Positions 32,696 to 61,433 of a DNA stretch of 64,000 nt are shown piece after piece. Below the pieces are notes generated by a model that saw nothing but the letters and a program-made list of their open reading frames with translations, was not told the origin of the DNA and searched no databases. The stretch lies in contig OX638340.1 in assembly GCA_951812955.1 (NCBI GenBank), positions 1,216,001 through 1,280,000 of the forward strand. The letters run 5' to 3'. The translations under genes and the position numbers were made by a program. Within the stretch, counting starts at the first letter, position 1, and every line of letters starts with the position of its first letter. This DNA comes from an uncultured Gemmatimonadota bacterium (GTDB lineage: Bacteria > JAAXHH01).

Positions 32696-34147
32696 ATGAC
32701 TCCCCACAACGCCCATCTACTCACAGTCGATGATATCCACCGCTTCATCACGGACGGGTACGTCCAGGTGAATGCCGGTCTTCCCGCGGAGTTCCACCGG
32801 GACCTGTACGAAAAAATCGAGACCGTGCTCGAGGAAGAAGGCAACCCGGGAAACAATATTCTGCCCCGGATCCCCGAGATCCGGAGGGTCTTCGATCAAC
32901 CCTCCGTACGGGGCGCGTTGACCAGTCTGCTCGGACCCGGTTACCTGATGCATCCCCACAGATACTGCCACCTGAACAAGCCGGGTAGCCCCGGCCAGCA
33001 GTGGCACAAGGACGATTACGTCTTCGACCACAACGTACGGCACGCGCGATGTCGCTGGGTCATGGCCTTCTACTATCCCCAGGACGTGAGCGAGGACATG
33101 GGACCCACGGGCATCCTGCCCGGCAGGCAGCACTACAATCGCATCTCAGACTGCGATGCGGCCCGGTCCACCGAGTCCGCATTGGGACTGACCGGCCCCG
33201 CGGGAACGGTCTCCATCGTCAATTTCGATTCCTGGCACCGGGCCACGGCAAATGCCAGCGACAAGAAAAGGTACATGCTGAAGTTCCAGTTTACCCGTAC
33301 GCGGGAACCGGGTGGACCCTCCTGGGGAGGCCGGAAGGCAGAATGGAATCCTTCGAACGGTAACGCCCATCCCGCGGTTTCGGAGATCGTGTGGAACTGG
33401 ATGTCAGGGTTGGAGCCAGCCAGTGTTAAACCCAACGGCGCGTCCATCGACCGGTACCTGTCCGCCCTGGACGGCCCGGACGAGGGAGCACGGCTTCAGG
33501 CCGCATACGAATTAGGGCGGCGAGGAGATAGTGCGGTAGAACCTCTGGTAGAACGACTGTGCGCGACCCAGGTAGAGGATGCGCTGGCGAGCGTGCCCAA
33601 AAACCCGGCGAATCCCACGGGAGGGAATCCATCGGAATTGACGTCCGCATATGCCCTTTCAGCTATGGGGCGCCCCGCGGTCAGCCGACTGGAGGAACTG
33701 TTGGAAGACGACAAGTGGTGGGTCCGGGCCGCCGCCGCGGACGTGCTGGGCGACATCGGCCTGCCGGCGTCTACCTCCCGGCCCGCGCTGTTGCGTTCCC
33801 TCGGCGAGGATGAAAACGCATGGGTGAGGCGAAACGCGTCTGAATCCCTGGCGGTCCTGGGCGATTTCGTCCCGGGTGACGTCCCGGTCCTTCGAAGCGC
33901 GCTCGCGGATGAAGACGAACGGGTACGGCGAAACATCGCCTTCGCCCTGGCAAGGCACCCTTTGCGGGACGCAAGCCTGGTCGACGACCTTGCGGTGCGT
34001 TCTGTGGAAGACGAAGGGCGCTATGTCCGGTACTACGCCCAGGCAGCCGCGGCCAGGATGGCGGGGAATGCGGGTAACGAGTCCCTGTGGGAGGCGATGC
34101 TCGCGACGCGATGGTGTCCGCTGACGACACCGAAGAGCGCGTTCTGA
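32696..34147 (+). CDS. PhyH-family dioxygenase domain fused to C-terminal HEAT/armadillo-like repeats
   Basis: The N-terminal ~230 aa are PhyH-like (QQWHKDD). The C-terminal ~200 aa contain repeated ...VRRNA/VRAAAADVLGDIG... helical repeats of the HEAT (PBS lyase-like) type. Confidence 0.6.
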   Translation: MTPHNAHLLTVDDIHRFITDGYVQVNAGLPAEFHRDLYEKIETVLEEEGNPGNNILPRIPEIRRVFDQPSVRGALTSLLGPGYLMHPHRYCHLNKPGSPGQQWHKDDYVFDHNVRHARCRWVMAFYYPQDVSEDMGPTGILPGRQHYNRISDCDAARSTESALGLTGPAGTVSIVNFDSWHRATANASDKKRYMLKFQFTRTREPGGPSWGGRKAEWNPSNGNAHPAVSEIVWNWMSGLEPASVKPNGASIDRYLSALDGPDEGARLQAAYELGRRGDSAVEPLVERLCATQVEDALASVPKNPANPTGGNPSELTSAYALSAMGRPAVSRLEELLEDDKWWVRAAAADVLGDIGLPASTSRPALLRSLGEDENAWVRRNASESLAVLGDFVPGDVPVLRSALADEDERVRRNIAFALARHPLRDASLVDDLAVRSVEDEGRYVRYYAQAAAARMAGNAGNESLWEAMLATRWCPLTTPKSAF

Positions 34148-37240: not shown

Positions 37241-38764
37241 TTGCAGGACCACTTTCAATCGCACTGGAAAATCCGTCAGGATCCTTTCAACCCCCTTCTC
37301 GATGAAAGCCCGCAAGCTTCAGCGGTGTCCGCGAAGAAAACACGGACGGTAGTGAAAGGGCTTCGAGTGACACGCAAGCCGAATATCATCTATCTGCTGG
37401 CGGACGACTGGGGATACGGGGATGTAAGCTGTCTCAATCCCGATTCCAAAATCCCGACGCTGCATACCGATCGGCTCGCAGGCGAAGGGATGGTGTTTAC
37501 GGATGCCCACAGCAATTCCGCGGTATGCACGCCCACGCGATACGGCGTGCTGACGGGACGTTACTGCTGGCGATCGCGGCTGAAGCGCGGGGTCTTGAAC
37601 GGCTATTCCGAACCGTTGATCGAGGAGGGACGCATGACGGTCCCTACGCTGCTTCGCGACCAGGGATATACGACGGCCTGCGTGGGCAAGTGGCACCTGG
37701 GACTGGGCTGGCAGACCTCCGGAGGAGTGGAGACGGTAAATAAGGAGACGGTGCGTTTCTCCGCTCCTTTGTCCCATGGTCCCCATACGGTGGGATTCGA
37801 CCATTCATACATCATCCCGGCGTCCCTCGATATGGAGCCCTACTGCTATATCGAAGATGGGGAGGTCGTGGAGCTTTCGGTCGAAGAGATAGCGGACTCG
37901 CCTCGGCCGGCCTTTTGGCGTGGAGGGGCCTGCGCGCCGGGGTTTTCCCATGAGACCTGCCTGCTGGAACTGACGATGCGGGCCGAGGGATTTATCCATC
38001 GGCACGCGAAAGAACATGGCGATCGGCCATTCTTTCTTTACTTCCCCGCACCTTCTCCCCATACGCCTCATTTTTCGCGAGACCGATTTGCCGGCCGGAG
38101 CCAGGCGGGCGTGTATGGAGATTACGTGACGGAGCACGACTGGAGTATCGGGCGAATCCTGGAGGCGGTGAAGCGCAATGGCCTGGAGGAGAATACGCTG
38201 ATTATCGTGACGAGTGACAATGGCTGCCACGCAGAGCCTATCGGGTTGAAGGAAAAGTATGATCACCTTGGAAATTACGTTTTCCGGGGTCAGAAGTCAG
38301 ATGCCTGGGACGGCGGTCACCGCATCCCGTTTATCGCGTCGTGGCCGGGCGTGATCGAACCAGGGTCACGATGTGAAAAGACGGTTTGTCTGACGGATCT
38401 GCTTGCGACCGTTGCCGGGATCTGCGAAGTGGACCTGCCGGTAGACGCCGGCGAAGACAGCTGCAATATCCTGCCCTATCTGCGGGGCGAACAGGCAGAG
38501 ACGATCCGTGAAGCGACGGTGCATCACTCGATCAGCGGGGAATTCGCCATACGGAAGGACAGGTGGAAGCTGGTAGAATGCCGCGGTTCGGGTGGGTGGA
38601 CCCTGAAAGAATCGGATGTGCCCGGGGATGCGCCGCCGATGCAACTCTACGATATGGTTTCCGATCCGGGAGAACGGTTAAACCTGTTTAGCAAAAAGCC
38701 CGGTGTGGTCGAGGATTTGCTCGACACGCTGAATCGGTACCGGACCGGCGGCCGGAGCACGTGA
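37241..38764 (+). CDS. Arylsulfatase (formylglycine-dependent sulfatase family)
   Basis: IIYLLADDWGYGD, the CTPTR FGly motif and GKWHLG are present. No obvious signal peptide. The start may be the internal GTG near 37352. Confidence 0.85.
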   Translation: MQDHFQSHWKIRQDPFNPLLDESPQASAVSAKKTRTVVKGLRVTRKPNIIYLLADDWGYGDVSCLNPDSKIPTLHTDRLAGEGMVFTDAHSNSAVCTPTRYGVLTGRYCWRSRLKRGVLNGYSEPLIEEGRMTVPTLLRDQGYTTACVGKWHLGLGWQTSGGVETVNKETVRFSAPLSHGPHTVGFDHSYIIPASLDMEPYCYIEDGEVVELSVEEIADSPRPAFWRGGACAPGFSHETCLLELTMRAEGFIHRHAKEHGDRPFFLYFPAPSPHTPHFSRDRFAGRSQAGVYGDYVTEHDWSIGRILEAVKRNGLEENTLIIVTSDNGCHAEPIGLKEKYDHLGNYVFRGQKSDAWDGGHRIPFIASWPGVIEPGSRCEKTVCLTDLLATVAGICEVDLPVDAGEDSCNILPYLRGEQAETIREATVHHSISGEFAIRKDRWKLVECRGSGGWTLKESDVPGDAPPMQLYDMVSDPGERLNLFSKKPGVVEDLLDTLNRYRTGGRST

Positions 38765-38869
38765 AACCGCGAGGTAGGTGAGACCTTCGAATCAGGTAAG
38801 GCCGCGAGGTACTTGAGACCGCGAGGCAGGGTAGGCCGCGAGGTACGTGAGCAAAGGAGTGTGGATGCG

Positions 38870-40714
38870 ATGAACGGCAAGAGACCCAACGTCATACTGG
38901 TTATCACTGACGACCAGGGATACGGGGACCTGGGTTGTACGGGCCACCCCTGGTTGAGGACGCCAAGTATCGATGCATTTCACCGCGACGCGGTCCGCCT
39001 TGCGGATTTCCACGTTTCGCCTCTGTGTACGCCGACGCGCGGAGCCTTGATGACGGGACGGCGACCCGTACGAAACGGCGCATGGGCGACCTGCTGGGGA
39101 CGGTCCATCCTACGGAAGTCCGAGACGACCATGGCGGACGTTTTCAGCGAGGCCGGGTACCGAACCGCCATGTTCGGAAAGTGGCACCTGGGCGACAACT
39201 ATCCCTATCGTCCCCAGGACCGGGGATTCCGGCACGTGGTGGCCCACAAGGGCGGGGGCGTGGGACAGACGCCCGATTTCTGGGGCAACAATTACTTCGA
39301 CGACACCTATTTCCAAAACGGGGAGCCCGTGGAACACGCCGGATACTGCACGGACGTGTGGTTCGACGAGGCGATCCGTTTCATCGAGGGGTGCGCGGCC
39401 GGCCGGTCCGCCGGTTCGTCGCCAGCGCAGAGGCAGCGCCAGGAAGCATCCCCGGCCAGTCCGAACGGAGCGGACAGAGCGGACAGTCCGAACGGAGCGG
39501 ACGGAGCGGACGAGCCGTTCTTCGTTTATCTGGCAACCAACGCACCGCACACCCCTTATCTCGTGTCCGAGGAATACGCCCATCCGTACCAGGGTATTCA
39601 AGATATACCGGAACCCGAGTTCTGCGGAATGATCGCGAACATCGACGAGAATTTCGGCCGACTGCGGCGTACGCTGGCACAACTGGGTCTGGAAGAAAAC
39701 ACCATCCTGGTCTTCATGACCGACAACGGGAGCTCCGGTGGCAGTGAACTCGATGAAAACCAGCACGCGGTGCGAGGTTACAACGCGGGGATGCGGGGCA
39801 AGAAGGGCTCCTACTACGACGGCGGTCATCGCGTGCCCTTCTTCCTTCGCTGGCCTGGAGGCGGTCTCGGGGGAGGACGTGACGTGGACGAGATGACCCT
39901 CCACGTAGACATCCTGCCGACACTCGTCGCGTTGTGCGGGTTGGACGAACCCGATGTGGACTTCGACGGGGTCAGTGTGGCGCCGCTACTTCGTGGTGAG
40001 CGGTCGGGCCTGCCCGGCGACCGGGTGCACTTTCTTCAGTACCGGCAGGATACCGTGCCTCCGGAGAAATGGACCAGCGCGGTCATGACCCGACGTTGGC
40101 GGCTGGTGCGGGGAAAGGAACTGTACGATATCAAGGCCGATCCGGGACAGTGGTGTGATGTCGCCCGGGAGCATCCCGACGTGGTGGACCGGCTGCGATG
40201 TAATCACGACGCCTGGTGGGACGAGATATCACCCGGTCTCGATGTGTATTGCCCCATCGAACTGGGAAGCCCCGCCGAGAATCCCACCCGCCTCTGCGCC
40301 ATGGACGTCCTTGGCGACGTGGCCTGGCACCAGACCCATATTGCCCGGGCACAGGAGAGCAGCGGGACCTGGGCCGTCGAGATCGAAAGGCCGGCCCGCT
40401 ACCGGTTCAATCTTCGCCGGTGGCCCGCCGAACGCGAGCTTGCGATCGACGGCGTGATACCGCCGGACGAGGCGCGCCGCCTTATCTATGCGCCTGAAGA
40501 TGCGGGCGCGCTGGCCATTCAGCCCGTCGAAGCACGCCTGTCCCTGTTCGGTCAAACACACCGCATGACAGTGAGTAAAGGCGATACGGCCGTCGAATTC
40601 ACCCTCGAAATCACACATACGGGTGTGACGAACCTGGAAGCCTCCTTCGTCGACGTGACCGGAGATGCCAGGGGAGCGTTCTATGTGGATGTCGAGCGGC
40701 TGGATGAGGTTTAG
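38870..40714 (+). CDS. Arylsulfatase (formylglycine-dependent sulfatase family) with low-complexity insertion
   Basis: VILVITDDQGYGD, CTPTRGALMTGR and GKWHLG are present. No signal peptide. It contains an in-frame 2 x 27-bp duplication encoding SPNGADRAD SPNGADGAD. Confidence 0.85.
   Translation: MNGKRPNVILVITDDQGYGDLGCTGHPWLRTPSIDAFHRDAVRLADFHVSPLCTPTRGALMTGRRPVRNGAWATCWGRSILRKSETTMADVFSEAGYRTAMFGKWHLGDNYPYRPQDRGFRHVVAHKGGGVGQTPDFWGNNYFDDTYFQNGEPVEHAGYCTDVWFDEAIRFIEGCAAGRSAGSSPAQRQRQEASPASPNGADRADSPNGADGADEPFFVYLATNAPHTPYLVSEEYAHPYQGIQDIPEPEFCGMIANIDENFGRLRRTLAQLGLEENTILVFMTDNGSSGGSELDENQHAVRGYNAGMRGKKGSYYDGGHRVPFFLRWPGGGLGGGRDVDEMTLHVDILPTLVALCGLDEPDVDFDGVSVAPLLRGERSGLPGDRVHFLQYRQDTVPPEKWTSAVMTRRWRLVRGKELYDIKADPGQWCDVAREHPDVVDRLRCNHDAWWDEISPGLDVYCPIELGSPAENPTRLCAMDVLGDVAWHQTHIARAQESSGTWAVEIERPARYRFNLRRWPAERELAIDGVIPPDEARRLIYAPEDAGALAIQPVEARLSLFGQTHRMTVSKGDTAVEFTLEITHTGVTNLEASFVDVTGDARGAFYVDVERLDEV
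39458..39511 (+). repeat. In-frame 2 x 27-bp tandem duplication inside the sulfatase gene
   Basis: agtccgaacggagcggacagagcggac is followed by agtccgaacggagcggacggagcggac. Confidence 0.8.
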
Positions 40715-40774: not shown

Positions 40775-41713
40775 CTAAGCCGTCACCCCGTGACGGATGC
40801 CAAGCGCCCCGGAGAACCTTTCGATGGAAGTCGCCAGCCCGTCGATCAGTCCCTCGTCAAAGGCTGTCAACCTGGCGTCCGTAGATCGGCAGCGCGTGGT
40901 GATGGGCAATCCGACGCGTTGCAGGTACCGCTTGCAGGTCACGAGGTACTTGTTGTTCACGACCGGCGCCAGGGCAGTCATCATCCGTTGTACCTCCTCC
41001 GCCGTTTCCGGCTGTCCGTCATATTCCGCGCACAGCCAGGAGAACAGTTCGGGAAACACGTTGGCGGCAACGGGCGAAATGCCCGCGGCGCCGTGGCGCA
41101 GCCCCTCGAGACCGGTTTCGAAATGGGCGTTGTAGACACCGAGCCGCGTAGACCTTACAGCGTCGATCTTCCGCCTTAGTATATCGATATTGCAGGCGGT
41201 ATCCTTGTGATATAGGAACCTGTCTGTGCTGCCGAAATGACCGAAGAGACCGGGCGAAATGAGCCGGTGATAGGGCGTTGGACATTCGTAGAGACCCAGC
41301 GGGACAGGGTCGGTCAGTTCGAGCAACCGCTCCATATTCCGTTTAAGCACTTCCTCGCTCTCGTCCCGGCCGGCCAGCAGGCAAACGATGACGACTACCG
41401 CGTCCACGCCCGTACCGGCCATGCGCCGGACGAAATCGGCCTGGCCGTCGACCGGACCGCCGAAGGTGCCAGTCGCGACCACCGGTACCCGTCCGCCGGC
41501 CCGCTGTACGACGCGGCGGGTCACCTCCAGGCGTTCGTCATCGTCCAGGTGAAACATCTCGCTTGAACCACAGCAGGCAAAGAGTCCGGCCGATCCTCTT
41601 TCGATGTACCAGTCGGTCAGGGCATCCACGCCCCGCCAGTCGATGGATCCGTCTTCGTGAAAGGCGTTGAGCATCACCGGCCAGAGGCCGCGTGGCAGTT
41701 TATTCATAGACAT
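40775..41713 (-). CDS. Dihydrodipicolinate synthase/N-acetylneuraminate lyase (DapA-like class I aldolase) family protein
   Basis: Start trimmed to ATG 41713 (MSMNKLPRGLWPVMLNAF...). It has the DHDPS-family TIM-barrel pattern with a conserved Lys region, but an atypical GTTGE-equivalent motif (CCGSSE). Confidence 0.55.
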   Translation of the reverse strand: MSMNKLPRGLWPVMLNAFHEDGSIDWRGVDALTDWYIERGSAGLFACCGSSEMFHLDDDERLEVTRRVVQRAGGRVPVVATGTFGGPVDGQADFVRRMAGTGVDAVVVIVCLLAGRDESEEVLKRNMERLLELTDPVPLGLYECPTPYHRLISPGLFGHFGSTDRFLYHKDTACNIDILRRKIDAVRSTRLGVYNAHFETGLEGLRHGAAGISPVAANVFPELFSWLCAEYDGQPETAEEVQRMMTALAPVVNNKYLVTCKRYLQRVGLPITTRCRSTDARLTAFDEGLIDGLATSIERFSGALGIRHGVTA

Positions 41714-41996
41714 GGCGTGGCGTCCTGAGTGGACAGGGCATGGTTCGATTGACTGGAATGAGTTCGCGGTCCAGGGATCATATCCTTTAATCGTCCTCGG
41801 TGTCAAGAATAACCGTACCGAAACAAACGGCCGGACGAACGCCGGTTTTGATTGGCCAGGCACGCGGCGTAGTCCTTTACACCCAACGGCGTCGAAGGTA
41901 TATTTTCGGGTAGCGATCCTGGTATCGCATGGGCGTTTCCAACCCCATTCACAATGACGAATCCGCCATATTTCCGTTCAAAATCGAAAGAAAGCC

Positions 41997-43289
41997 ATGT
42001 CCGTTCTCGGCCTTACCTGTACCCGTTGCGATGCCCAGTATCCACTGGGACCCATGTTCTTCGGTTGTCCCGCTTGCGCTGACGGCCCGGATCGCGGCAC
42101 TGACGACCCCGGTCATGGCGCGGTCGACCTCGGTCGCGGCGCGGCTGCCTTGACCGTGACCTATGACTACCAGGCGATCGCCGCCGAACTGAACGTGGAG
42201 AACTGGAACCGGGCGGGGCACGGCATCTGGCGGTTCGATGCCCTCCTTCCAATTCGGGATCCGTCTGTTCAGATTTCTCTTGGCGAGGGGAACACGGCCC
42301 TTGTGCGGCCCAGGAAAGTCTGCGAAGCGACCGGGTTGTCGAATCTGTTCATAAAGAACGAAACGACCAATCCCACCTGGGCCTTCAAGGACCGCTTCCA
42401 CGCTTCCTCGGTCTCCATGGCGAAGTCCCTGGGCTTCTCCCGGATTACGGCCAGCACCACGGGCAATCACGGCGCTTCGGCCGCGGCCTATGCCGCTGCC
42501 GCGGAGATGGATTCATGCATCATCCTGTGCCACCCGGAATCATCCATGCTCCAGCGGGACATGATCGCCCTGTACGGTGGTCACGCCTTCGTGCTGGAGA
42601 ACCGGTTCAAGTACCTGGACACGCTGATCCGGGATCATGGCTACTATCCCTCCACGACCATGACGCCGATGCCCACCGGTACGCCCTACGGTATCGAGGG
42701 CTACAAGACCATTGCGTTCGAGATCTTCGTACAGCTCGGTGGCCACGTTCCCGACCGTATGTTCTGTCCGATCGCCGCCGGTGATGCGCTTTTCGGTCCG
42801 TGGAAGGGGTTCAACGAGATGCGCCTGCTCGATCTGTCTGATCGGAATCCGGTCATGCACGGTGTCCAGCCGGCGGGATGCAATCCCTACGTACAGTCGT
42901 TCCAGCAGAGACGCAGGGACGTGATCGTCCATCCGGATCCGAGTTCCATCGCCCTTTCCATTCGCGACGACACCGGCGGCCCCTCGGCGCTGCGGGCCAT
43001 ATACGATTCAGGTGGCGACGCGACCGACGTTACCGAAGACGAGATCATCGAGGCGGTGCGCCTGCTCGCGCACAGCGGGTACCTGGTAGAACCCTCCTCG
43101 GCGGCGTCCGTTGCTGGAGCGATCAAGGCGGCCCGGGCGGGTCGACTCGCCCCGGATGAGACCGTCGTCTGCCTGGTCACCGGATCGGGCGCCAAGTGGC
43201 CGGAGGTCATGGCCGAACTCTCCAGTCGAGAAGCGCTCGTCGAGCCCACGTGGGATGAGATCAAGGCGCGGGCAGGCCTCGACGGCTGA
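41997..43289 (+). CDS. Threonine synthase-like PLP enzyme (fold-type II) with N-terminal zinc-ribbon
   Basis: N-terminal CTRCDAQY...CPAC. FKDR supplies the PLP lysine, and GNHGAS and the glycine-rich GSGAK loop are present. Confidence 0.65.
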   Translation: MSVLGLTCTRCDAQYPLGPMFFGCPACADGPDRGTDDPGHGAVDLGRGAAALTVTYDYQAIAAELNVENWNRAGHGIWRFDALLPIRDPSVQISLGEGNTALVRPRKVCEATGLSNLFIKNETTNPTWAFKDRFHASSVSMAKSLGFSRITASTTGNHGASAAAYAAAAEMDSCIILCHPESSMLQRDMIALYGGHAFVLENRFKYLDTLIRDHGYYPSTTMTPMPTGTPYGIEGYKTIAFEIFVQLGGHVPDRMFCPIAAGDALFGPWKGFNEMRLLDLSDRNPVMHGVQPAGCNPYVQSFQQRRRDVIVHPDPSSIALSIRDDTGGPSALRAIYDSGGDATDVTEDEIIEAVRLLAHSGYLVEPSSAASVAGAIKAARAGRLAPDETVVCLVTGSGAKWPEVMAELSSREALVEPTWDEIKARAGLDG

Positions 43290-43302: not shown

Positions 43303-45816
43303 ATGGCAATGACCACAACCCTTTATATGCTCGCCGACGACCTCGCCGGCGCTCACGACGTGGCGGTTCCCTTCGCGAAGCGCAACTTCGCCGTGGCCGT
43401 ACTGTCCGATCCGAACCGCCTGGATCGATTCGATTCCGCCGACCTGGTTGTGCTGAACACGAACACCCGTTCCTGCAGCGAGTCGGAAGCCGCGGAACGA
43501 GTCGGCGCGGCCTGCGAAGCGGTACGGGTGCGTAACGGTTCGATTATCTACAAGAAGATCGACTCGACCCTGAGGGGGCATGTCGGCCTCGAAATCGACC
43601 TGGTGAGCGAAATGATGGACTTCAATCTGGCCGTATGCGCACCGGCTTTCCCGGAACTCGGAAGGACCACGGTGGGCGGTTATCAACTGCTCCGCGGCAT
43701 GCCCGTCAGCGGCGCGGACATGGCGGGACCCGACATTCCACCGCAACATGCTTTCATTCCGGATCTACTGCATACCGGCTCCGGCAGGAAGACCGTCCTC
43801 GTCGACTTGAAGACCGTCCAGGAAGGCGCGACGGCCATTCGTGAAGCAGTCGCCTGTTTCAGGGCGGTGCCGGGGACCAGGATAGTGGTGGACATGGCAG
43901 ATCCAACGTGCTGGAACGGGCTGCTGGACGCGGTCCTTGAAAACAGCGTGGTGTCGGCCAGGAGTGGATCTCCAGCGGCCGCCACGGCCACTACGCTGCT
44001 CTGCGGCTCAGGTGGAATGGCCGCCGCGCTCGCCGACAGGTTCGCATCCGCACGGGGTCAGCGGGCGTCGTCAACGACCCTGAAGCCGCGCTTCGATAGC
44101 GTTTCCCCGGAATCCAAAAGCCATCCTGTCCTAGTCTTCGCCTGCAGCCTGCACGCCACGACCGCTCGCCAGGTCGAGCAGGTCAGCGGCCGGGACTCGG
44201 TGGTGACCTGCCCCTTCGATCCCCTGTTGATTGTGGACGAAGGGTCCCGGAACGACGAGGTGGATCGACTGGCAGCACGCGTCGCTGAGGTCCTTGCGAA
44301 TGGACGGAACGCCGTCGTAACACCTGTTCGCCCCGGGCGCGGGGGGCGGCGGGCGTGGCTTGAGAGGTTGTCGGCGGCAACAGCCGGCCGCGATCCCGCG
44401 TCTGCAGTCATCGAGAACCTGGGAGAAGTCGCACGCAGACTGTTAACGAGCGTTCGCCCGGAGGGTCTCATACTCACGGGAGGGGAAACCGCCTGCAGCG
44501 TATTTCACGAACTGAACGCGGATGGCGCCTGGGTCCTCGAAGAGATGGATACCGGCGTTGGCCTGGCCGCTGTCGCGGGTGGTCCCCACGATGGAATGGG
44601 TCTGGTCATTAAGCCCGGATCCTTCGGCGACGAGCGGACGCTGGTGCGGGCCATGGAACGGCTCAATTCGCGTTCCAGCGGCTCGCAGGCAGGCGGCGTC
44701 CGTGCCCGTACCGGCGAAAACAGCAGTGGTGCGGATGATCGGCCGGTTGTCGGGATCACCATGGGCGATCCGAACGGCGTGGGACCGGAAGTCATCGTAA
44801 AGATCCTGTCGCAGGAATGGGTCTACGAACTGTGCCGGCCGCTCGTCATCGGGCATGATGAAGTAATCCGCCGGGTCCTCCCGTTGGCACGGACGGGCTC
44901 CTCCAACGGCTGCGATGGCCGTGATACCGGTCCATGCCTCGGAATCCGCCGGGTCGACCGTCCAGGAAACGGCCGGTACCGCCATGGCAAGGTGGACGTC
45001 ATGAACGCCTGGGAGGTGGAAATCGATAAACTTACTCCAGGCCAAGTACAATCCGAAGCCGGTCGTCTAGCCGTGGAATCCGTCAAGCTGGCCGCCCGCA
45101 TGGCGATGGAGGATGAAATCGACGCCGTGGTCACCGCGCCGATGAATAAGGAAGCCATGGGACTTGCCGGCTATGCCTTCGCCGGTCACACCGAATTGCT
45201 TGCCGAAGCCACCGGATCGGCGAAATTCCGGCTTTCGCTGGCCTTCGACGGGATCCTGGTCTCCCACGCGACGACCCACGTATCCCTGAGAGACGCCATC
45301 GACCGTCTTTCCGAGGAGGAAATCCTCGTCACCGTGGACCTGGTCGGCAACGCGCTGGTCGGCATGGGCGTGACCGCGCCCCGGATCGCCGTCTGCGGTC
45401 TGAATCCCCATGCGGGGGAGGGCGGTCTCTTTGGAGACGAGGAAATTCGGATCATCGAACCTGCGCTCGAAAAGGCACGCGAGAGAGCCGTCAACCGTGG
45501 TTGGCAAATTGTCGGCCCATTGCCGCCCGACACCGTGTTCATGCGGGCTCGAAAGGGCGATTTCGACGGGATCGTCGGCATGTACCACGACCAGGGCCAC
45601 ATTCCGGTCAAGGCCATCGCCTTCGACCGCGCGGTCAACGTGACGCTGGGCCTGCCTATCGTCCGCACTTCCGTGGACCACGGCACCGCATTTGATATCG
45701 CGGGCAGGGGCGTAGCCGACGCGGGCAACCTGGGCGAAGCGCTCAGGATGGCCGTGAAGCTGATCGGCGAACAGTGGTCCGTGGGAAACAGAACAGGAGG
45801 GGGTTCCGCGTCATGA
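43303..45816 (+). CDS. Fusion protein: four-carbon acid sugar kinase (DUF1537/OtnK family) N-terminal + PdxA-family 4-hydroxythreonine-4-phosphate dehydrogenase (PdxA2-like) C-terminal
   Basis: The N-terminus YMLADDLAGAHDVAV is a DUF1537 signature. The C-terminal half has VGITMGDPNGVGPEVI, PMNKEAMGLAGYAFAGHTELL and HGTAFDIAGRGVADAGNLGEAL, which are PdxA motifs. It is a single uninterrupted frame. The start was moved to ATG 43303 to avoid overlap with the upstream gene. Confidence 0.75.
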   Translation: MAMTTTLYMLADDLAGAHDVAVPFAKRNFAVAVLSDPNRLDRFDSADLVVLNTNTRSCSESEAAERVGAACEAVRVRNGSIIYKKIDSTLRGHVGLEIDLVSEMMDFNLAVCAPAFPELGRTTVGGYQLLRGMPVSGADMAGPDIPPQHAFIPDLLHTGSGRKTVLVDLKTVQEGATAIREAVACFRAVPGTRIVVDMADPTCWNGLLDAVLENSVVSARSGSPAAATATTLLCGSGGMAAALADRFASARGQRASSTTLKPRFDSVSPESKSHPVLVFACSLHATTARQVEQVSGRDSVVTCPFDPLLIVDEGSRNDEVDRLAARVAEVLANGRNAVVTPVRPGRGGRRAWLERLSAATAGRDPASAVIENLGEVARRLLTSVRPEGLILTGGETACSVFHELNADGAWVLEEMDTGVGLAAVAGGPHDGMGLVIKPGSFGDERTLVRAMERLNSRSSGSQAGGVRARTGENSSGADDRPVVGITMGDPNGVGPEVIVKILSQEWVYELCRPLVIGHDEVIRRVLPLARTGSSNGCDGRDTGPCLGIRRVDRPGNGRYRHGKVDVMNAWEVEIDKLTPGQVQSEAGRLAVESVKLAARMAMEDEIDAVVTAPMNKEAMGLAGYAFAGHTELLAEATGSAKFRLSLAFDGILVSHATTHVSLRDAIDRLSEEEILVTVDLVGNALVGMGVTAPRIAVCGLNPHAGEGGLFGDEEIRIIEPALEKARERAVNRGWQIVGPLPPDTVFMRARKGDFDGIVGMYHDQGHIPVKAIAFDRAVNVTLGLPIVRTSVDHGTAFDIAGRGVADAGNLGEALRMAVKLIGEQWSVGNRTGGGSAS

Positions 45817-47615
45817 AGTCCAAACACCTGGGCCGTGACGGACGGTCCAAGGACTCCGGCCCGAAGGACGCCGCCGGAAGCCATATTTTTTTGCCGAAAA
45901 AGTCTCCTGCCGCCGGCCTACGCCGTTCGTCCATCTCCGGCCGGTGGTATCCGGCTATCCTTGCGGCTGCCTTCCTGGGATGCGCGGGCGTGCTGGTCGC
46001 CCGAACCTTGCCGATGATCCCGCAGGGCGACGCCCCGGTCTTCAACTCCATCGGCAAGCAGTTGCCGCCCGATGCTGCGCCGCTCGAATTCCAGACCTAC
46101 CGGTTCATGCGCGACGAGCCCCGAAGCCTGGACGTCAGCGTCAATCTCTACGTGGGGCAGTGGAACGAGTTCCTCTTCGAGACCCTGGTCGCGAAGGACG
46201 AAAACGGCGACCTCATCCCGGCCGCGGCGGATCGCTGGGAGATCTCGCCCGACGGAAAAACCTGGACCTTCTTCCTGCGGAAAACGGGACGGTGGAGCGA
46301 CGGAAGGCCCGTCACGGCCCACGATTTCGTTTACACTTTCCGCCGTTCCCTGTCCTACGAGACGGCCAATCCATACGCCGCCTTCTACAGCGACATCGTG
46401 GGCGCAAAAACCTACAGCCAGACCCCTAACGCCGATCCCTCCATGCTGGGCGTCAGGGCGATCGACGACCATACGCTGACGGTCGAAACCACCCACCCGG
46501 CGCCCTACCTCGGCCTCATCCTTTCCGTCCCCACTTCCATGCCAGTGCCCCGGTGGCAGGTGGAAAAGCATGGTCCCAGATGGACCGAGGAAGGGAATTG
46601 CGTATCCAACTCGAGCTATCGATTGACGGAGTGGAAACATGGCAGCCACATGGATTTCGAACTCAATCCCCACTACGACGGTCCCATCAAGGGCTATGTG
46701 GAAAAAATAAACCGGGTATTCCGTCATCCGTCTACGGCCAACCTGCTCCCTTATGAAAACGACGAGGTGGGTTTTGCCGAGGTGCAGGCCAACGAATTGA
46801 TTCGCGTGCAGCGCGACCCCGGATTGCATGCGGAACTGATCTCGAATCCGACGGACGGCACGTGGTACATCTTCTTTAATACACGGCAACCGCCCTTCAG
46901 CGATGCCAGGGTCCGGCGCGCCATCGCCCGGGCCATCGATCGCGAGACGATCTGCCGCGTAGTGCTGCACGGCGCCGCGGTTCCCGCCTATTCCATGCTG
47001 CCGGTCACGTTCGACGCCCACGGCGACTACAGGGAGTTCCAGGAGTTCGATCCGTCAAAGGCGCGGGAACTCCTGGCCGATGCGGGGTATCCCGGCGGCC
47101 GTGGATTCCCCAGGATGGAGATGTGGCTCCGGCAGCCGAGGCCGGATATCAGGATGGTCGCGGAAGTGATCCAGGGCATGCTGAATGAGCACCTGGGCGT
47201 CGATATCACGTTCCGAAGCGCGGATTACCCGGTTTTCACCAATTACATGTTCAACTGGAACATCGATCTTGGACTGGTGCCCTTCTTCGGGGATTACCGC
47301 GATCCCAAGAACATGCTGGACATGATCTGGCGCCCCGGAACCCGCGGGCGCAGCCGACACGATTTCGAGCACACGGAATTCGAGGCGTTGCTGGACGCCG
47401 CGGATCAGGAAATAGATCCGGATAAACGGACCGGGATCTTCCGCCGGGCAGAGCGCATCCTGGTAGAGGAATCGGGAGCCGCTTTCGTCTTCCACCCCAT
47501 GGCCAATTCCCTGTTCAAGCCATGGCTCAGGGGACTCAAAACCAACCGATTCGGCGGAAAAACCGTGATCTTCACAGATTTATATATCGGCGAGGATTTT
47601 TCCGGGGCGAGGTAG
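45813..47615 (+). CDS. ABC transporter substrate-binding protein, family 5 (peptide/nickel/opine type), probable lipoprotein
   Basis: Its ATG overlaps the stop of the upstream gene (ATGA). The signal peptide has an AAAFLGC lipobox-like site. SBP_bac_5-like body. Confidence 0.75.
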   Translation: MKSKHLGRDGRSKDSGPKDAAGSHIFLPKKSPAAGLRRSSISGRWYPAILAAAFLGCAGVLVARTLPMIPQGDAPVFNSIGKQLPPDAAPLEFQTYRFMRDEPRSLDVSVNLYVGQWNEFLFETLVAKDENGDLIPAAADRWEISPDGKTWTFFLRKTGRWSDGRPVTAHDFVYTFRRSLSYETANPYAAFYSDIVGAKTYSQTPNADPSMLGVRAIDDHTLTVETTHPAPYLGLILSVPTSMPVPRWQVEKHGPRWTEEGNCVSNSSYRLTEWKHGSHMDFELNPHYDGPIKGYVEKINRVFRHPSTANLLPYENDEVGFAEVQANELIRVQRDPGLHAELISNPTDGTWYIFFNTRQPPFSDARVRRAIARAIDRETICRVVLHGAAVPAYSMLPVTFDAHGDYREFQEFDPSKARELLADAGYPGGRGFPRMEMWLRQPRPDIRMVAEVIQGMLNEHLGVDITFRSADYPVFTNYMFNWNIDLGLVPFFGDYRDPKNMLDMIWRPGTRGRSRHDFEHTEFEALLDAADQEIDPDKRTGIFRRAERILVEESGAAFVFHPMANSLFKPWLRGLKTNRFGGKTVIFTDLYIGEDFSGAR

Positions 47616-51472: not shown

Positions 51473-52948
51473 ATGTCCATAGTCAAGACCAGCGTAAGCC
51501 ATCCAATCCGCGTCGATGCAGTACGTCCGAGGGACGGTTTCGGCCAGATCGGCGTCACCCTGTGTCCCGGCAAAAAGTATCCCTGGGGAATTGCGGGGAA
51601 CTGGGAACGCGACCTGTGCCTGGACCTCGAAAGGATCAGAAAGTGGGGCGCGACGGCGGTAGTCAGCCTGATCACCGAGGAGGAAATACGGGACCTGCAA
51701 GTTCAGGACATCTCAAGGGCGGTTGCGGACCGCCATATGGAGTGGTGGCACCTGCCCATCCCGGACGGGCAGCCACCCGGACCAGACTTCGAAAAAGCCT
51801 GGGTTCATGCGGGAGCGGCCATCCGGGACCGCCTGCGACTCGGATTCGACGTGCTCGTCCATTGTAAGGGCGGCCTGGGCCGCGCGGGTACGGTCGCCGC
51901 GCGGTTGCTCGTTGAGTTCGGCGAAAATCCGGACGAAGCGATACGGCGCGTTCGAGCGGCACGCTCGCAAAACGCCCTCGAAACGCGCGACCAGGAACGC
52001 CACGTAAAGCAATGCGCGCGGGCAGCGCCCACTCGACCCGTCACGACAGAAGAAAGCATCCGGGACCGCGCGATCGGCGCCTTCCTGGGTCTCGCGGTAG
52101 GGGACGCGGTCGGCACGACGCTCGAGTTCCGGGGCCGCGACGCGCAGGAGCGGGTGGACGATATGGTAGGCGGTGGTCCGTTCAATCTGTCAGCCGGCGA
52201 ATGGACCGACGACACCACCATGGCGCTGGCCCTGGCCGACAGTCTCGCCGAATGCGGGACGCTCGATTGCCGGGACCTGATGGACCGGTTCGTCCGATGG
52301 TGGAAGAAAGGCGAATACTCATGCACCGGGAGTTGCTTCGACATCGGGAATACCACGAGCGCGGCGCTTTCACGCTATGTGCGGACAGACGATCCGATCG
52401 CTGGTTCCACCGAATCCCGCGCCGCGGGAAACGGTTCGCTGATGCGGCTCGCCCCGGTCGCACTGCGCTACTGGGACGACCGCGCCTTGCTCGACGCCAC
52501 GGCGGCAGAACAGTCCCGGACCACCCACGGGTCCGAGGAGGCGGTGGACGCCTGCCGGGCCTTCGCGGAACTGCTTGCGGACGCCATCGCGGGCAAAGCA
52601 CGGGTGGAAGTCCTCGCCCCGAGGTCCTTCGATGGAGCACCGGCCGTCGCCCGGATTCTTGGTGGTAGCTGGCGCGGCCTTGCCCGGAGAAAGATCAGTT
52701 CGAGCGGATATGTGATAGACACCATGGAAGCCGCGTTATGGTCCGTCGCCCGCACCTCCGATTTCCGGGGCGCCGTGCTGCTCGCGGCCAACCTGGCTGA
52801 TGACGCCGACACGGTCGCCGCGGTGACGGGGCAGCTCGCCGGAGCGCTCTACGGCCTGAGCGGCATTCCCGGCGACTGGCTTGATCAGGTCGCGTGGAAG
52901 GATCGACTCCTGGACGTGGCGGGCCGATTGACGAGCAGAACCATCTGA
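51473..52948 (+). CDS. Fusion protein: protein-tyrosine/dual-specificity phosphatase-like domain + ADP-ribosylglycohydrolase (ARH/DraG family) domain
   Basis: The N-terminal ~180 aa have the PTP signature VHCKGGLGRAGT (Cx5R). The C-terminal ~300 aa have ARH motifs GAFLGLAVGDAVG, GEWTDDTTMALA, GNGSLMRLAPV and TVAAVTGQLAGALYG. Confidence 0.75.
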   Translation: MSIVKTSVSHPIRVDAVRPRDGFGQIGVTLCPGKKYPWGIAGNWERDLCLDLERIRKWGATAVVSLITEEEIRDLQVQDISRAVADRHMEWWHLPIPDGQPPGPDFEKAWVHAGAAIRDRLRLGFDVLVHCKGGLGRAGTVAARLLVEFGENPDEAIRRVRAARSQNALETRDQERHVKQCARAAPTRPVTTEESIRDRAIGAFLGLAVGDAVGTTLEFRGRDAQERVDDMVGGGPFNLSAGEWTDDTTMALALADSLAECGTLDCRDLMDRFVRWWKKGEYSCTGSCFDIGNTTSAALSRYVRTDDPIAGSTESRAAGNGSLMRLAPVALRYWDDRALLDATAAEQSRTTHGSEEAVDACRAFAELLADAIAGKARVEVLAPRSFDGAPAVARILGGSWRGLARRKISSSGYVIDTMEAALWSVARTSDFRGAVLLAANLADDADTVAAVTGQLAGALYGLSGIPGDWLDQVAWKDRLLDVAGRLTSRTI

Positions 52949-54544: not shown

Positions 54545-55732
54545 ATGAGCGATGTTACGAGCCCGGTCCGGACAGACAACCTCCCCCCACCGGACGACGC
54601 ATTCTGGAAAGGAATCCGCCGCGACCAGTTCTACCTGGAACCCGATATCGCCTTTCTCCAGGGCGGCTCCGTCGGACCGTCACCCAAGCCGGTCGTGGAT
54701 CGCGTGACCGAGGCCATCCGGGCCTTCGACAGCGACCCTTTGAAGCACCAGCAGCAATACTGGCCTATTGTCGAGGAAGCGAGAGAAAAGCTGGCGAAAT
54801 ACGTTGGCACGCGGCCGGAGCGCATCGCGCTGGTCCAGAACACCACCATGGCGCTCAGCGTCTTCGCCCAGGGCGTGACCTGGAAGGTAGGCGGAGAAAT
54901 CCTGATGACGGACCAGGAATACGGCGCGGTAAACGCCTGCTTCGACTACGTGGCCGAACGGCACGGCATGACCGTCCGCAGGGTGCATCTGCCCATGGAG
55001 ATCACCGACAAGCAGCAGATTATCGATGTATTCAAAAGTGGAATAAACGAGCGTACGGCGGCCCTGGTCTTCGGGCACGTGTATTGGTCGACGGGCATGG
55101 TGACGCCAGTGAAGGAACTGACGGAAATCGGCCGTGAGCATGGCATCTGGGTCGTGGTGGACGGCGCTCACGCCGTGAGCATGGTCCCCCTGCATCTGGA
55201 CGAATGGAATCCCCATTTCTACGCGTCCAGCCTCCACAAGTGGACCCTGTCCCCCAAAGGCACGGGCATGCTCTTCGTATCGGACGACGCCCATGACCGG
55301 GTCGAGCCGCTCATCCTGGGTTCCAGCGCCCATCCCAATCCGAACGCGAGCCGGTTCGACATGATGGGCACCCGGGACCAGACGCCATTCATTGGGCTGG
55401 GAACGGCGCTCGATTTCCAGCAGGAGATCGGATGGGATCACATACGGACGTATTGTCGGGGCCTGGTGAATTACATGCGCGAACGCCTAGGCCGCATCCG
55501 GGGTGTACGCTTCCTGACGCCGCGCGACCCCGAGATGTCCGGGTTCATCACGACCTTCACTATCGAAGGCGCCGATCTCCAGAAAATCCGGCAGGAACTG
55601 TGGGACGACGAAAAGATCGAGACCGTGGCCTTCCACATCAACGACGTGCCCGTCTTCCGCATTTCCACTCATTTTTATAACAGCCGGGAGGAAATCGACC
55701 GCATGGTGCGGGCCATCGAGCGGCGGCTGTAG
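54545..55732 (+). CDS. Aminotransferase class V-fold PLP-dependent enzyme (isopenicillin-N-epimerase/cysteine-desulfurase-like)
   Basis: 395 aa. The SLHKW lysine motif is present with class V fold similarity. Confidence 0.7.
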   Translation: MSDVTSPVRTDNLPPPDDAFWKGIRRDQFYLEPDIAFLQGGSVGPSPKPVVDRVTEAIRAFDSDPLKHQQQYWPIVEEAREKLAKYVGTRPERIALVQNTTMALSVFAQGVTWKVGGEILMTDQEYGAVNACFDYVAERHGMTVRRVHLPMEITDKQQIIDVFKSGINERTAALVFGHVYWSTGMVTPVKELTEIGREHGIWVVVDGAHAVSMVPLHLDEWNPHFYASSLHKWTLSPKGTGMLFVSDDAHDRVEPLILGSSAHPNPNASRFDMMGTRDQTPFIGLGTALDFQQEIGWDHIRTYCRGLVNYMRERLGRIRGVRFLTPRDPEMSGFITTFTIEGADLQKIRQELWDDEKIETVAFHINDVPVFRISTHFYNSREEIDRMVRAIERRL

Positions 55733-55747
55733 GGAAAGGAAATTGAA

Positions 55748-56803
55748 ATGAACGATGAACATGGGTTCATAACGCGCACCATCCACGAGGGCGAGGCGGG
55801 GAATTCGTCGGCGACGCCGATCTACCAGTCGACCACGGTGGACGGTGCATATCTTCGGGGAAGCAATCCGACTTTCACGGCATTCGAGGAGAAGATGTGC
55901 GCACTCGAGGGCGGCGGACGCAGTATCGCGACCGCCTGCGGCATGGCGTCGGTCACCCAGGCCGTGATGACGCTCATTCGCGCGGGCTCCAGAATCGTGT
56001 GTCACCAAACCGGCTACGTCTGGACCCGGCATTTCATGTCCGAAGAGCTGCCCCGGCTCGGTTTCGATACCGAACTGATCGACATGCGGGATCCGAAACA
56101 GCTCGACGCGGCCCTTGAGAAGCCCACGGACGTGGTTTACTTCGAACCCTTGTCCAATCCCACGCTGGACATCATCGATGCGCCCGGTGTCATTCAAAAG
56201 GCCCACCAGGCCGGCGCGAAGGTCGTAATCGATAATACGTTTCTCTCCCCCTATCTCTTCCGTCCCATGGACCACGGGGCAGACGTCGTGCTGCACAGTG
56301 CAACCAAGTATCTCTGCGGTCACGGAGACGCCCTGGCCGGCATCATCACGACCCGCGATCCCGATCTGGGTGAACAGGTCCTTCGATCCCGGAACACCTA
56401 TGGCGGCATCTTGAGCCCTATGAACGCCTTTCTCCTGCTCCGGGGGATAAAGACCCTCTCCATCCGCATGGACCGGCACAACCTGAACGCCCGCGCCGTG
56501 GCGGACTTCCTGGAATCCCATCCCCGGGTAAAAAGGACCTACTATCCCGGTCTTCCCTCCACGCCCGGACACGAAATCGCACGGTCCCAGTGGAACGGAT
56601 ATGGCGGGATGGTGAGTTTCGAAATCGCCGAGGAGACCGTCGTCGGATTCCTCGACCGCGTGCGCCTGTGCAAGCCCTGGGTGAGCCTGGGCGACGTCGG
56701 CTCCCTCGTCACCGGCGACCCGGAGGGGCAACGCGTAAGGATGTCCGTGGGTCTCGAAGACACCGATGACATTATCAAGGATCTCGAGCAGGCGCTGGGT
56801 TGA
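55748..56803 (+). CDS. Cys/Met-metabolism PLP-dependent enzyme (cystathionine gamma-synthase/gamma-lyase family)
   Basis: SATKYLCGHGDALAG carries the PLP lysine, consistent with the trans-sulfuration family. Confidence 0.85.
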   Translation: MNDEHGFITRTIHEGEAGNSSATPIYQSTTVDGAYLRGSNPTFTAFEEKMCALEGGGRSIATACGMASVTQAVMTLIRAGSRIVCHQTGYVWTRHFMSEELPRLGFDTELIDMRDPKQLDAALEKPTDVVYFEPLSNPTLDIIDAPGVIQKAHQAGAKVVIDNTFLSPYLFRPMDHGADVVLHSATKYLCGHGDALAGIITTRDPDLGEQVLRSRNTYGGILSPMNAFLLLRGIKTLSIRMDRHNLNARAVADFLESHPRVKRTYYPGLPSTPGHEIARSQWNGYGGMVSFEIAEETVVGFLDRVRLCKPWVSLGDVGSLVTGDPEGQRVRMSVGLEDTDDIIKDLEQALG

Positions 56804-56891
56804 GGGATTGACGGAAATTCGCACACGCAACCGCTCGCGTACCTGATGCATGAAGTCTGGGTCACAAAGCACGTCGTCTCGAGCCGTGTCG

Positions 56892-57047
56892 TTATGAGCC
56901 GCGTCGATCAATGGACACGTAAGCGCAAGCTGCGGAGTCATGAGCCGCGTTGATCAATGGACACGTATGCGCAAGCTGCGGAGTCATGAGCCGCGTTGAT
57001 CAATGGACACGTATGCGCAAGCTACGGAGTCATGAGCCGCGTTGATC
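56892..57047. repeat. ~3.4 x 46-bp tandem repeat (TCATGAGCCGCGTTGATCAATGGACACGTATGCGCAAGCTGCGGAG)
   Basis: Units lie at 56892-56937, 56938-56983 and 56984-57029, with a partial unit to about 57047 and degenerate copies on either side. It is intergenic. Confidence 0.85.
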
Positions 57048-57489
57048 TCAGACTGCGCGTCATGAGCAGCGTCGAGTAGCAATAGTTCCCACCCGGCATG
57101 ACGCAAGGTTCCCGCTTTCTACCACAGGCTCTCGCAACCACTTCACACAACCTGCCACCTGCTTCCTGCACCCATCACTACGATTTGATTCAGCGTAAAT
57201 GGCGCGCAACGAGAACGGACAGAAAGTGAGTCGTGTCCAGCGGGTCGGAGCGGTAACAGCTTGTCTGGTGCGTGAGCCGAATGGAATAACTGGTAGGGAA
57301 CCGACAGGATACGGCACGCGTTCAATGGAGCAATGGACAGGGAAGCCGACAGTACGCGGCACACGATCACCATCATCAGCAGGCTGGGAGCGAACTGCAG
57401 TTTAAGTCAATCGTAGCTGTAACAAGAGCCACACCAGTAAACAAGCCACGACAGAAAGAAGAGACCACAACATCAACAAGGAGCCGCGA

Positions 57490-58254: not shown

Positions 58255-58300
58255 CGGTTGATAGGAGAGGGCCGCGACAACGGCGTCTCTGCTTGCGAAA

Positions 58301-58390
58301 AGCGCATCAAGGTGTGCAACGTATGAGAAGCGCATCAAGGTGTGCAACGTATGAGAAGCGCATCAAGGTGTGCAGCTTATGAGAAGCGTG
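58301..58390. repeat. 3 x 28-bp tandem repeat (AGCGCATCAAGGTGTGCAACGTATGAGA)
   Basis: Units lie at 58301-58328, 58329-58356 and 58357-58384 (2 substitutions), with a partial fourth. It is intergenic, upstream of the lipoprotein pair. Confidence 0.85.
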
Positions 58391-58424
58391 TACCAGTAGG
58401 TGTTACAAGAACTGGAGGTAGGGA

Positions 58425-59105: not shown

Positions 59106-59209
59106 ATGTACAGCGCCATACCCAGCATCACCGCGACATTGATGCGGCATTGGACGAGGGAACAGTAAAGGAGGACGAATTGTCAACATCCAATATACGT
59201 TCAAACGGT

Positions 59210-59983: not shown

Positions 59984-60191
59984 GGCGGTGAAAGAGGCGA
60001 AGGCGGCGGGGGGCGACGAACACGGAACAGGCGGTGAAGACCGCGGCGAACATGACGGAGGCTGAGACTGGTTCGTATGCCATGTACCAGAATCCGTGAA
60101 AAACACCGCTTGATCGTACTCCTCAATGGACCTATTGTAACAACCAGCACATCAACATTACCGCCTGATAAAGAGTGATCGGAAAAGCAAA

Positions 60192-61292: not shown

Positions 61293-61398
61293 CGCCTTGC
61301 TCCCGACCCTTGCCGGTGGAATCTACTTTTTCTGTCTCGCCCGTCAATACTCCAAAAACCCACATTTGCCAGGCATTTTCCTTGCGCTCCGATTCGAT

Positions 61399-61418: not shown

Positions 61419-61433
61419 GACAGGGGGTATTTC

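Follow-up and report, generated by a model that had tools for sequence, protein, structure and literature searches.

We found that positions 43303–45816 of the window, by which we mean the whole 64,000-nucleotide stretch of contig OX638340.1 from an uncultured Gemmatimonadota bacterium, hold one intact fused gene that encodes a bifunctional protein: a DUF1537 kinase followed, on the same polypeptide, by a PdxA2-type dehydrogenase. From the ATG at 43303 to the TGA at 45814–45816, the translation runs through 837 codons, all of them open. The gene and its parts are as follows.

43303–45816, + strand: kinase–PdxA2 fusion gene, 837 aa; a continuous frame with three Pfam domains in one frame
43321–43947, + strand: SBD_N, the DUF1537 N-terminal substrate-binding domain, residues 7–215 (Pfam PF07005, 149.7 bits)
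44131–44643, + strand: NBD_C, the DUF1537 C-terminal nucleotide-binding domain, residues 277–447 (Pfam PF17042, 87.9 bits)
44644–44739, + strand: inter-domain linker, about residues 448–479, hypervariable and predicted to be disordered
44740–45762, + strand: PdxA2-type NAD-dependent decarboxylating dehydrogenase domain, residues 480–820 (TIGR00557)

An intact frame with conserved motifs

All three domains scored far above their Pfam gathering cut-offs (25 bits for SBD_N and 28.3 bits for NBD_C), and the Pfam PdxA model PF04166 matched residues 509–817 with 331.7 bits over its full length (model positions 1–286). With NCBIfam the PdxA match reached residues 479–820, and TIGR00557 gave 334.4 bits on residues 483–820, against a cut-off of 290.35. 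The translation contains the motifs MLADDLAGAHD, KKIDSTLRG, TGGET, KPGSFG, GHTE, NPHAGE, MYHDQGH and VDHGTAFD; within the kinase half, ADDLAG and KKIDSTLRG belong to SBD_N, and TGGET and KPGSFG to NBD_C. Across 34 fused proteins, the invariant residues were D12, D13, G16, D19, K84, K85, D87, S88, R91 and G92 in SBD_N; T392, G393, G394, E395, K437, G439 and G442 in NBD_C; and H629, N701-P702-H703, H762-D763, H766 and D792-H793 in the PdxA domain. We take the metal-binding histidines to correspond to His166, His211 and His266 of the E. coli enzyme. Membership of the DUF1537 family is borne out by both Pfam domains, the conserved motifs and the family fold described below, and membership of the PdxA/PdxA2 family by full-length model matches together with the metal-binding and active-site motifs.

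An earlier note on this DNA had proposed a single-polypeptide fusion of these two families, quoting the kinase motif MLADDLAGAHD and the PdxA motifs, and had named a stop or frameshift at 44650–44750 as the sign of two separate genes. We looked for a stop or a change of frame between 44600 and 44800 of the window sequence and found none; the quoted motifs all lie in one frame, and the proposal is upheld by the intact 837-codon frame and its three domains. At the position where a separate PdxA would start, the fusion has alanine instead of methionine, and no Shine–Dalgarno-like stretch was found there. Read mechanically, the open reading frame (ORF) reaches back to 43111; on a near-identical contig the gene caller chose ATG 43255, which would give a protein of 853 aa. 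Among the 34 fused proteins, conservation sets in at residue 7 of the 837-aa form, which makes 43303 a sensible start, and the choice between the two leaves the finding unaffected.

Recurrence of the fusion

We searched 5.8 billion proteins by word index and obtained 77 matches, some 58 of which were full length with all three domains. Ten fused clusters lay at 45–48% identity, some named Latescibacteria or Gemmatimonadota, and 41 at 62–99%; a further fused group, at 34–40% identity, has among its members Burkholderia sp. BCC1630 and a single transcript from a eukaryote. The fused clusters come from ENA, NCBI, JGI and Logan assemblies, several of them on megabase contigs, and relatives from other assemblies retained the fused frame at 99, 89, 80 and 77% identity. 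We also scanned 1.84 billion representatives clustered at 50% identity with HMMER, which gave 20,814 matches to either half. Among the best 150 of these 20,814, about 20 representatives of at least 690 aa had the kinase-then-PdxA order and about five had the reverse order, with PdxA at the N terminus.

Separate genes were nevertheless the rule. In 41 of the 42 co-linear loci among the matches listed, which span diverse bacteria and archaea, the kinase and the dehydrogenase were encoded separately, in agreement with the note's statement that they are normally separate neighbours; the single open frame among those 42 was that of Avisuccinivibrio pullicola (L075). Fusion is thus a recurrent minority state, and separate adjacent genes are the norm. 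The database search for orthologous fusions, which the note had suggested, produced many clusters of the same architecture from independent assemblies, and the novelty of the fusion did not survive it: more than 25 clusters at 50% identity are fused, some with one domain order and some with the other, and the fusion is already in the literature. An abstract by Thiaville and colleagues (ACS Chem Biol, 2016) reportedly mentions "physical clustering and gene fusion with the PdxA2 family" for DUF1537. Table 4 of a gene-fusion survey lists a fusion of DUF1537 to a gene of the pyridoxal phosphate (PLP) pathway (Henry et al. 2016, BMC Genomics). The uncharacterised Gemmatimonadota-type clade studied here adds a member to an already known fusion type.

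Fusion and fission across the linker

The window is near-identical to ENA contig ERZ18545484:ptg000094l, where the proteins neighbouring the fusion, one like threonine synthase (ThrC) and one like DHDPS, are 100% identical to those of the window, and it is syntenic with the metagenome-assembled genome GCA_009841265.1 ("Gemmatimonadetes bacterium") at 68% identity. The names of some relatives' records (ENGE20, ROBB21) suggest that they come from work on sponge microbiomes. Among relatives, the linker between the kinase and PdxA domains ranges from 21 to 91 residues; that of the window has 32–36. Many relatives have a linker built of repeated (A/T)GDT(E/P) pentapeptides, which appear in the DNA as 15-nt tandem repeats (at 11416–11512 of the fused locus L002, and as pentapeptide linkers in P0007, P0011, P0013, P0022 and others); we looked for tandem repeats in the window linker and found none.

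The syntenic relative L005 encodes a 495-aa kinase and a 365-aa PdxA in different frames, 10 nt apart. Aligning the L005 and L002 junctions showed that they differ by a single-base indel, which in L005 puts a TAA in frame just before the sequence AAGGAAG and the pdxA start codon, ATG. With one linker base separating the split from the fused state in close relatives, and with the linker poorly constrained, a sequencing or assembly indel could in principle have merged two adjacent genes in the window. We consider this extremely improbable. The fused frame is present in the 41 clusters at 62–99% identity from several assembly sources, linker substitutions among the 99, 89 and 80% relatives remain in frame, and the position of the PdxA start holds alanine without a ribosome-binding stretch. 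The same architecture occurs in more than 50 clusters from independent assemblies, at 35–99% identity, and the fusion is therefore no artefact of assembly.

The split relatives show at least two different truncated tails. A neighbour-joining tree built on the kinase domain placed every split form within one subclade of the fused clade, and the outgroups were all fused. In the lineage of the window (putatively sponge-type Gemmatimonadota and their relatives), the fusion therefore looks ancestral, and the simplest reading of the tree would be an old fusion with at least two fissions of recent date. As a simple distance tree, it carries no support values, and the number of events is provisional. 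We also considered programmed frameshifting in the split relatives and set it aside, as no recognisable slippery site was seen. The lineage offers a clean natural case of reversible fusion and fission, in which a single-base indel in the linker switches between one gene and two.

Predicted modules and channelling

We built an AlphaFold2 model of the fusion on 34 fused homologues. Its mean predicted local distance difference test (pLDDT) was 76.5 and its predicted template modelling score (pTM) 0.54, with residues 457–477 below 50 pLDDT. In Foldseek comparisons, the N-terminal half superposed on solved DUF1537 kinases (template modelling (TM) score of 0.83 to 5dmh and 0.79 to 3dqq) and the C-terminal half on 4jqp, 6e85 and 2hi1 (TM score of 0.80–0.85); no solved chain covering both halves was found among the Foldseek structure matches. 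The model suggests two well-folded modules joined by a flexible linker, without a fixed mutual orientation.

The earlier note had held that a fusion would channel the phosphorylated intermediate directly to the dehydrogenase. A built substrate channel is unsupported, given the modelled structure, a disordered and hypervariable linker of 21–91 residues, and the natural fissions among close relatives. Most plausibly, the two modules would fold independently on a flexible tether that provides co-expression at a 1:1 ratio and proximity rather than a structural tunnel, although some kinetic channelling may occur. The switching between fused and split states bears on the question of whether metabolic fusions are kept for channelling or just for co-expression.

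Proposed reaction and substrate

Our inference as to substrate, products and reaction sequence is as follows. The N-terminal DUF1537 kinase would transfer phosphate from ATP to the terminal (C4) hydroxyl of a 3,4-dihydroxy C4 acid, the likeliest substrates being D-threonate or D-erythronate. The C-terminal PdxA2-type domain, dependent on metal and NAD, would then oxidise the 3-hydroxyl, and the resulting beta-keto acid would lose CO2 to give dihydroxyacetone phosphate (DHAP), which would enter glycolysis. On balance, we think it somewhat more likely than not that the protein takes D-threonate or D-erythronate to DHAP in this way, by phosphorylation at C4 and then an oxidative decarboxylation that depends on NAD.

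Several comparisons are consistent with this proposal. The PdxA half scored 275–280 bits against 4jqp, 6e85 and 2hi1, which we ourselves sorted as PdxA2 type, and 191–201 bits against 1yxo, 1ps6, 1ps7, 1r8k and 3lxy, which we sorted as true PdxA; of these five, 1ps6 is from E. coli. By these scores the dehydrogenase half appears to lie nearer to PdxA2 than to the biosynthetic enzyme; together with its fusion to a kinase, this places it in the PdxA2 subgroup. One of the three closest chains, 6e85, was deposited as a D-threonate 4-phosphate dehydrogenase. For the kinase half, the best model was D-threonate kinase (175.6 bits), followed by 3-oxo-tetronate kinase (114.1 bits), and JGI names for relatives include "D-threonate/D-erythronate kinase". 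Published accounts assign DUF1537 kinases to D-erythronate and L-threonate catabolism, and published work notes a side activity of DUF1537 members on 4-hydroxythreonine. As judged from the sequence, a C4 acid sugar or a hydroxy-amino acid would be a reasonable substrate, as the earlier note had suggested.

Other observations weigh against a tetronate pathway. All the compared chains except 6e85 were deposited as 4-hydroxythreonine-4-phosphate dehydrogenase, and the division into PdxA and PdxA2 is our own. Neither half reached a substrate-level model: D-threonate kinase scored 175.6 bits against a cut-off of 450, and D-threonate 4-phosphate dehydrogenase (NF002891) 304.7 against 583. The cut-offs for 3-oxo-tetronate kinase (114.1 against 350) and 3-oxo-isoapionate kinase (33.3 against 700) were not reached either. 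The kinase half is only about 21–26% identical to any solved DUF1537 protein. The locus in the window has neither an organic-acid transporter nor a DeoR gene and is thus not a typical acid-sugar cluster, and its conserved partner gene encodes a threonine-synthase-family PLP enzyme, a hint of an amino-acid substrate.

The main value of the finding lies in annotation. NCBI names proteins of 830–900 residues from this group "4-hydroxythreonine-4-phosphate dehydrogenase PdxA", which hides the kinase half and, for the fused proteins, probably misstates the pathway.

A threonine-synthase-like partner gene

Directly upstream of the fusion lies the ThrC-like gene.

41997–43289, + strand: ThrC-like PLP enzyme, 430 aa, with an N-terminal CxxC...CxxC segment (PALP, 208.6 bits)
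41876–41904, + strand: sigma-70-like promoter match TTTACA-17-TATATT upstream of the ThrC-like gene, from a consensus scan, a weak kind of evidence
41806–41777, − strand: divergent partner promoter match, from the same kind of scan

The two promoter matches agree with the consensus at 10 and 11 of 12 positions, respectively, which is weak evidence for a promoter pair. The ThrC-like protein is 72% identical to its counterpart at L010, where the fusion itself is only 45% identical, and at L010 the stop of the ThrC-like gene overlaps the start of the fusion by 4 nt. This identity across clades and the overlap mark the gene as a conserved operon partner; among the neighbours compared, it is apparently the only conserved partner of the fusion. 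ThrC-like proteins at 66–67% identity also come from contigs of the same lengths as those bearing the 45–48% fusions. Another locus, L006, keeps the fusion without a ThrC-like gene upstream. Among the matches listed, none of 80 diverse kinase/PdxA loci had a ThrC-like gene within 6 kb.

The protein scored 138–162 bits against solved ThrCs and keeps the PLP lysine, but it fell below every ThrC equivalog cut-off (241.5 against 303 for PRK08197; 156.4 against 167.1 for TIGR00260). Relative to Thermus ThrC, it carries the replacements T88H, N154P, S155T, R160G, Q164Y and N188A; T88, N154, S155, R160 and N188 are invariant in four solved ThrCs, two of which (Thermus and B. subtilis) we aligned again with the protein. 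Omi et al. 2003 reportedly identified these five residues of the Thermus enzyme as ligands of the O-phosphohomoserine phosphate, which a literature search did not confirm. The search, which covered ThrC phosphate-binding residues and characterised ThrC-like paralogues, turned up nothing usable. The PGAP name for close relatives is only "pyridoxal-phosphate dependent enzyme". Given this naming, the scores below the cut-offs and the residues replaced relative to the four solved ThrCs, the protein is not a canonical ThrC. The earlier note's description of a flanking threonine-synthase-like PLP enzyme therefore stands as to family and conserved neighbourhood, and is not supported if it is taken to mean a canonical threonine synthase, given the scores and the replaced residues.

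A signature of the H88/G160/Y164 type recurs in about 120 family members (P0078–P0197), down to 37% identity, from Acidobacteriota, Chloroflexota and others; the family likewise has the N-terminal CxxC...CxxC segment. Public annotation of the family is inconsistent, calling its members "threonine synthase" or just "PLP-dependent enzyme". What novelty remains in the locus lies in this partner, with its remodelled active-site pocket and widespread paralogue family, and in the indel-driven switch between fusion and fission.

An amino-acid substrate is a rival reading. The kinase might phosphorylate 4-hydroxy-L-threonine (4HT), a toxic antimetabolite, to 4-phosphohydroxy-L-threonine (4HTP), which the PdxA2 domain would oxidise and decarboxylate to 3-amino-2-oxopropyl phosphate, either to supply PLP synthesis or to detoxify the compound; the ThrC-like enzyme made from the same transcript would handle a related gamma-substituted amino acid or be the enzyme under protection. 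Reviews cite DUF1537 members that convert 4HT to 4HTP, the substrate of PdxA, and PdxA2 has been reported to catalyse the PdxA reaction. The general pdxA model TIGR00557 is passed (334 bits, cut-off 290), the most conserved neighbour is a threonine-synthase-family PLP enzyme with the stop/start overlap of L010, and several PhyH-type hydroxylases in the window add a circumstantial point. On the other side, no pdxJ, pdxH or thrB was seen in the 64-kb window, and more distant members of the ThrC-like family lie away from kinase or PdxA genes. The ThrC-like protein also lacks the canonical phosphate-binding residues, which makes the handling of a phospho-amino acid in the standard way unlikely. 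We regard the 4HT route as unlikely, and D-threonate or D-erythronate as the better candidates.

A binding protein and a DHDPS-like gene beside the fusion

Two further genes flank the pair.

45813–47615, + strand: OppA/MppA-like family-5 solute-binding protein (SBP_bac_5, 272.5 bits) with an N-terminal hydrophobic anchor
40775–41713, − strand: very divergent DHDPS-family protein, 312 aa, divergently transcribed (PF00701, 81.6 bits)

The start of the binding-protein gene at 45813 overlaps the stop of the fusion, and a 4-nt overlap was called at L001 and L002. The gene follows the fusion head-to-tail and is itself followed by genes for HU, SppA and a LysM lytic transglycosylase in the opposite orientation. 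Its product, which is predicted to be exported, has the peptide binders OppA (about 211 bits) and MppA (about 201 bits) as its closest solved relatives. Neither a permease nor an ATPase gene was found within 10 kb of it, and it is absent from L010, which keeps the rest of the locus. The compact uptake and catabolism unit proposed in the earlier note is therefore not borne out: the binding protein is an orphan of the peptide-binder type, and we rejected its membership of the pathway as unsupported.

The DHDPS-family protein has a best solved relative at only 60.7 bits and keeps a lysine aligned with that of the DHDPS IKD motif. Its gene holds the same position in L001, L002, L005 and L012 and is absent from L010. 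Although DHDPS-family genes lie near fused genes in three lineages, identity is just 24–27%, and with the absence from L010 this led us to reject the gene as a core partner.

In another reading, three enzymes (ThrC-like, kinase and dehydrogenase) would work one after the other on something other than a simple tetronate or 4HT, perhaps a compound taken up from a sponge host, such as an imported modified amino acid or a peptide-derived hydroxy acid. The ThrC-like gene and the fusion are kept together across clades whose fusions are only 45% identical, the ThrC-like family has a signature of its own, (S/T)TGNHG and P(Y/F)GxEGYK, and one of its members lies between an amino-acid permease and a PAP2 phosphatase. 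Translational coupling of the OppA/MppA-like binding protein to the fusion would fit such a pathway, as would the failure of either half to meet a substrate-level equivalog. However, no chemistry is known that would connect a PLP enzyme of fold type II with the substrate of a DUF1537/PdxA2 pair, L006 has the fusion and the binding protein without the upstream ThrC-like gene, and gene adjacency alone is no proof of a common pathway. We think a serial three-enzyme pathway improbable, to much the same degree as the 4HT route.

More doubtful still is a specific form of this idea, in which the coupled ThrC-like (H88/G160/Y164) and fusion pair would constitute an undescribed three-activity pathway in putatively sponge-associated bacteria of the Gemmatimonadota, Latescibacteria and Zixibacteria. 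Its substrate would be an amino acid with a hydroxyl or another substituent in the gamma position, such as 4-hydroxythreonine or a homoserine derivative; alternatively, the ThrC-like protein would be an atypical threonine synthase in a pathway shielded from, or supplied by, a 4HT kinase/dehydrogenase. A 2023 PLP survey yielded no information on Gemmatimonadota. The two-step conversion of D-threonate or D-erythronate to DHAP remains the reading that we prefer.

Other genes in the window

The window holds at least six genes of PhyH-family Fe/2-oxoglutarate dioxygenases, one with HEAT repeats.

7773–8630, − strand: PhyH gene
13681–14529, + strand: PhyH gene
15846–16868, + strand: PhyH gene
32696–34147, + strand: PhyH gene
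60192–61292, + strand: PhyH gene
62213–63145, + strand: PhyH gene

Two sulfatases (37241–40714), a creatininase (18655–19470) and MR/MLE enolase-family genes are also present. Such a PhyH/sulfatase/creatininase/enolase repertoire is typical of the scavenging of host compounds.

Between 2478 and 5863, G+C content at third codon positions (GC3) falls to 0.33–0.47, compared with about 0.75 elsewhere; this patch, which contains an AAA_21/AbiEii-like ATPase gene (4718–5863, − strand), is probably a horizontally acquired island. From 55487 to 62053, GC3 is about 0.6, and four ORFs there have no Pfam match (55745–56941, 57493–58347, 58425–59105 and 59102–59983). A Fic/DOC gene (61658–62053, GC3 0.59) lies beyond the PhyH gene at 60192–61292 (GC3 0.73). 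Genes for SelB (85–2088, + strand) and SelA (20411–21667, − strand) show that the organism has machinery for selenocysteine incorporation. One gene, at 51473–52948, combines protein-tyrosine-phosphatase-like domains with an ADP-ribosylglycohydrolase domain and is conserved in relatives.

Comparison with known systems

The closest precedents are the DUF1537–PdxA2 fusions and pairs (Henry et al. 2016), in which the same two families, with a PdxA2-type dehydrogenase half, are joined in one polypeptide. The clade of the window differs from the known fusions in its long, variable linkers and in its ThrC-like partner, which is absent from the 80 other loci listed. For separate genes, Zhang et al. 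(PNAS, 2016) reportedly described a two-step catabolism of D-threonate and D-erythronate to DHAP by DtnK or DenK with PdxA2. That route uses the same families and the same predicted two-step chemistry, and it is the one indicated by the best matches of the window protein to family models and structures; its genes are reportedly separate and adjacent, whereas the window protein is fused and falls below both equivalog cut-offs.

The fusions of Burkholderia sp. BCC1630 (L008) and Avisuccinivibrio pullicola (L075) have the same domain order, a similar size (768–775 aa) and a DHDPS-family gene nearby. They are 35–38% identical to the window fusion, have short linkers and, instead of a ThrC-like enzyme and an OppA-like binder, are accompanied by Fe-ADH, DeoR and SSF, TRAP or TTT transporters. 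Such proteobacterial fused genes (L008 5901–13093; L075 817–13450) thus sit in clusters of the acid-sugar type, with TRAP, TTT or SSF transporters, DeoR, DHDPS-family and Fe-ADH genes; the Burkholderia locus also has a BNR_2 sialidase-like gene. We speculate that at these loci a 2-keto-3-deoxy acid is cleaved to pyruvate and a C4 aldehyde-acid, which is reduced to a tetronate.

Canonical ThrC and the gene upstream of the fusion share the fold-type II PLP family and the PLP lysine, and differ in that the residues corresponding to Thermus T88, N154, S155, R160, Q164 and N188 are all replaced in the latter. A further parallel is the Arabidopsis LTD, a multi-domain protein that metabolises L-threonate, in which consecutive enzymes for C4 acid sugars, including a DUF1537-type kinase domain, are likewise fused. 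LTD is eukaryotic, follows an L-threonate dehydrogenase route and joins the kinase domain to other partners, whereas in the window the kinase is joined to PdxA2.

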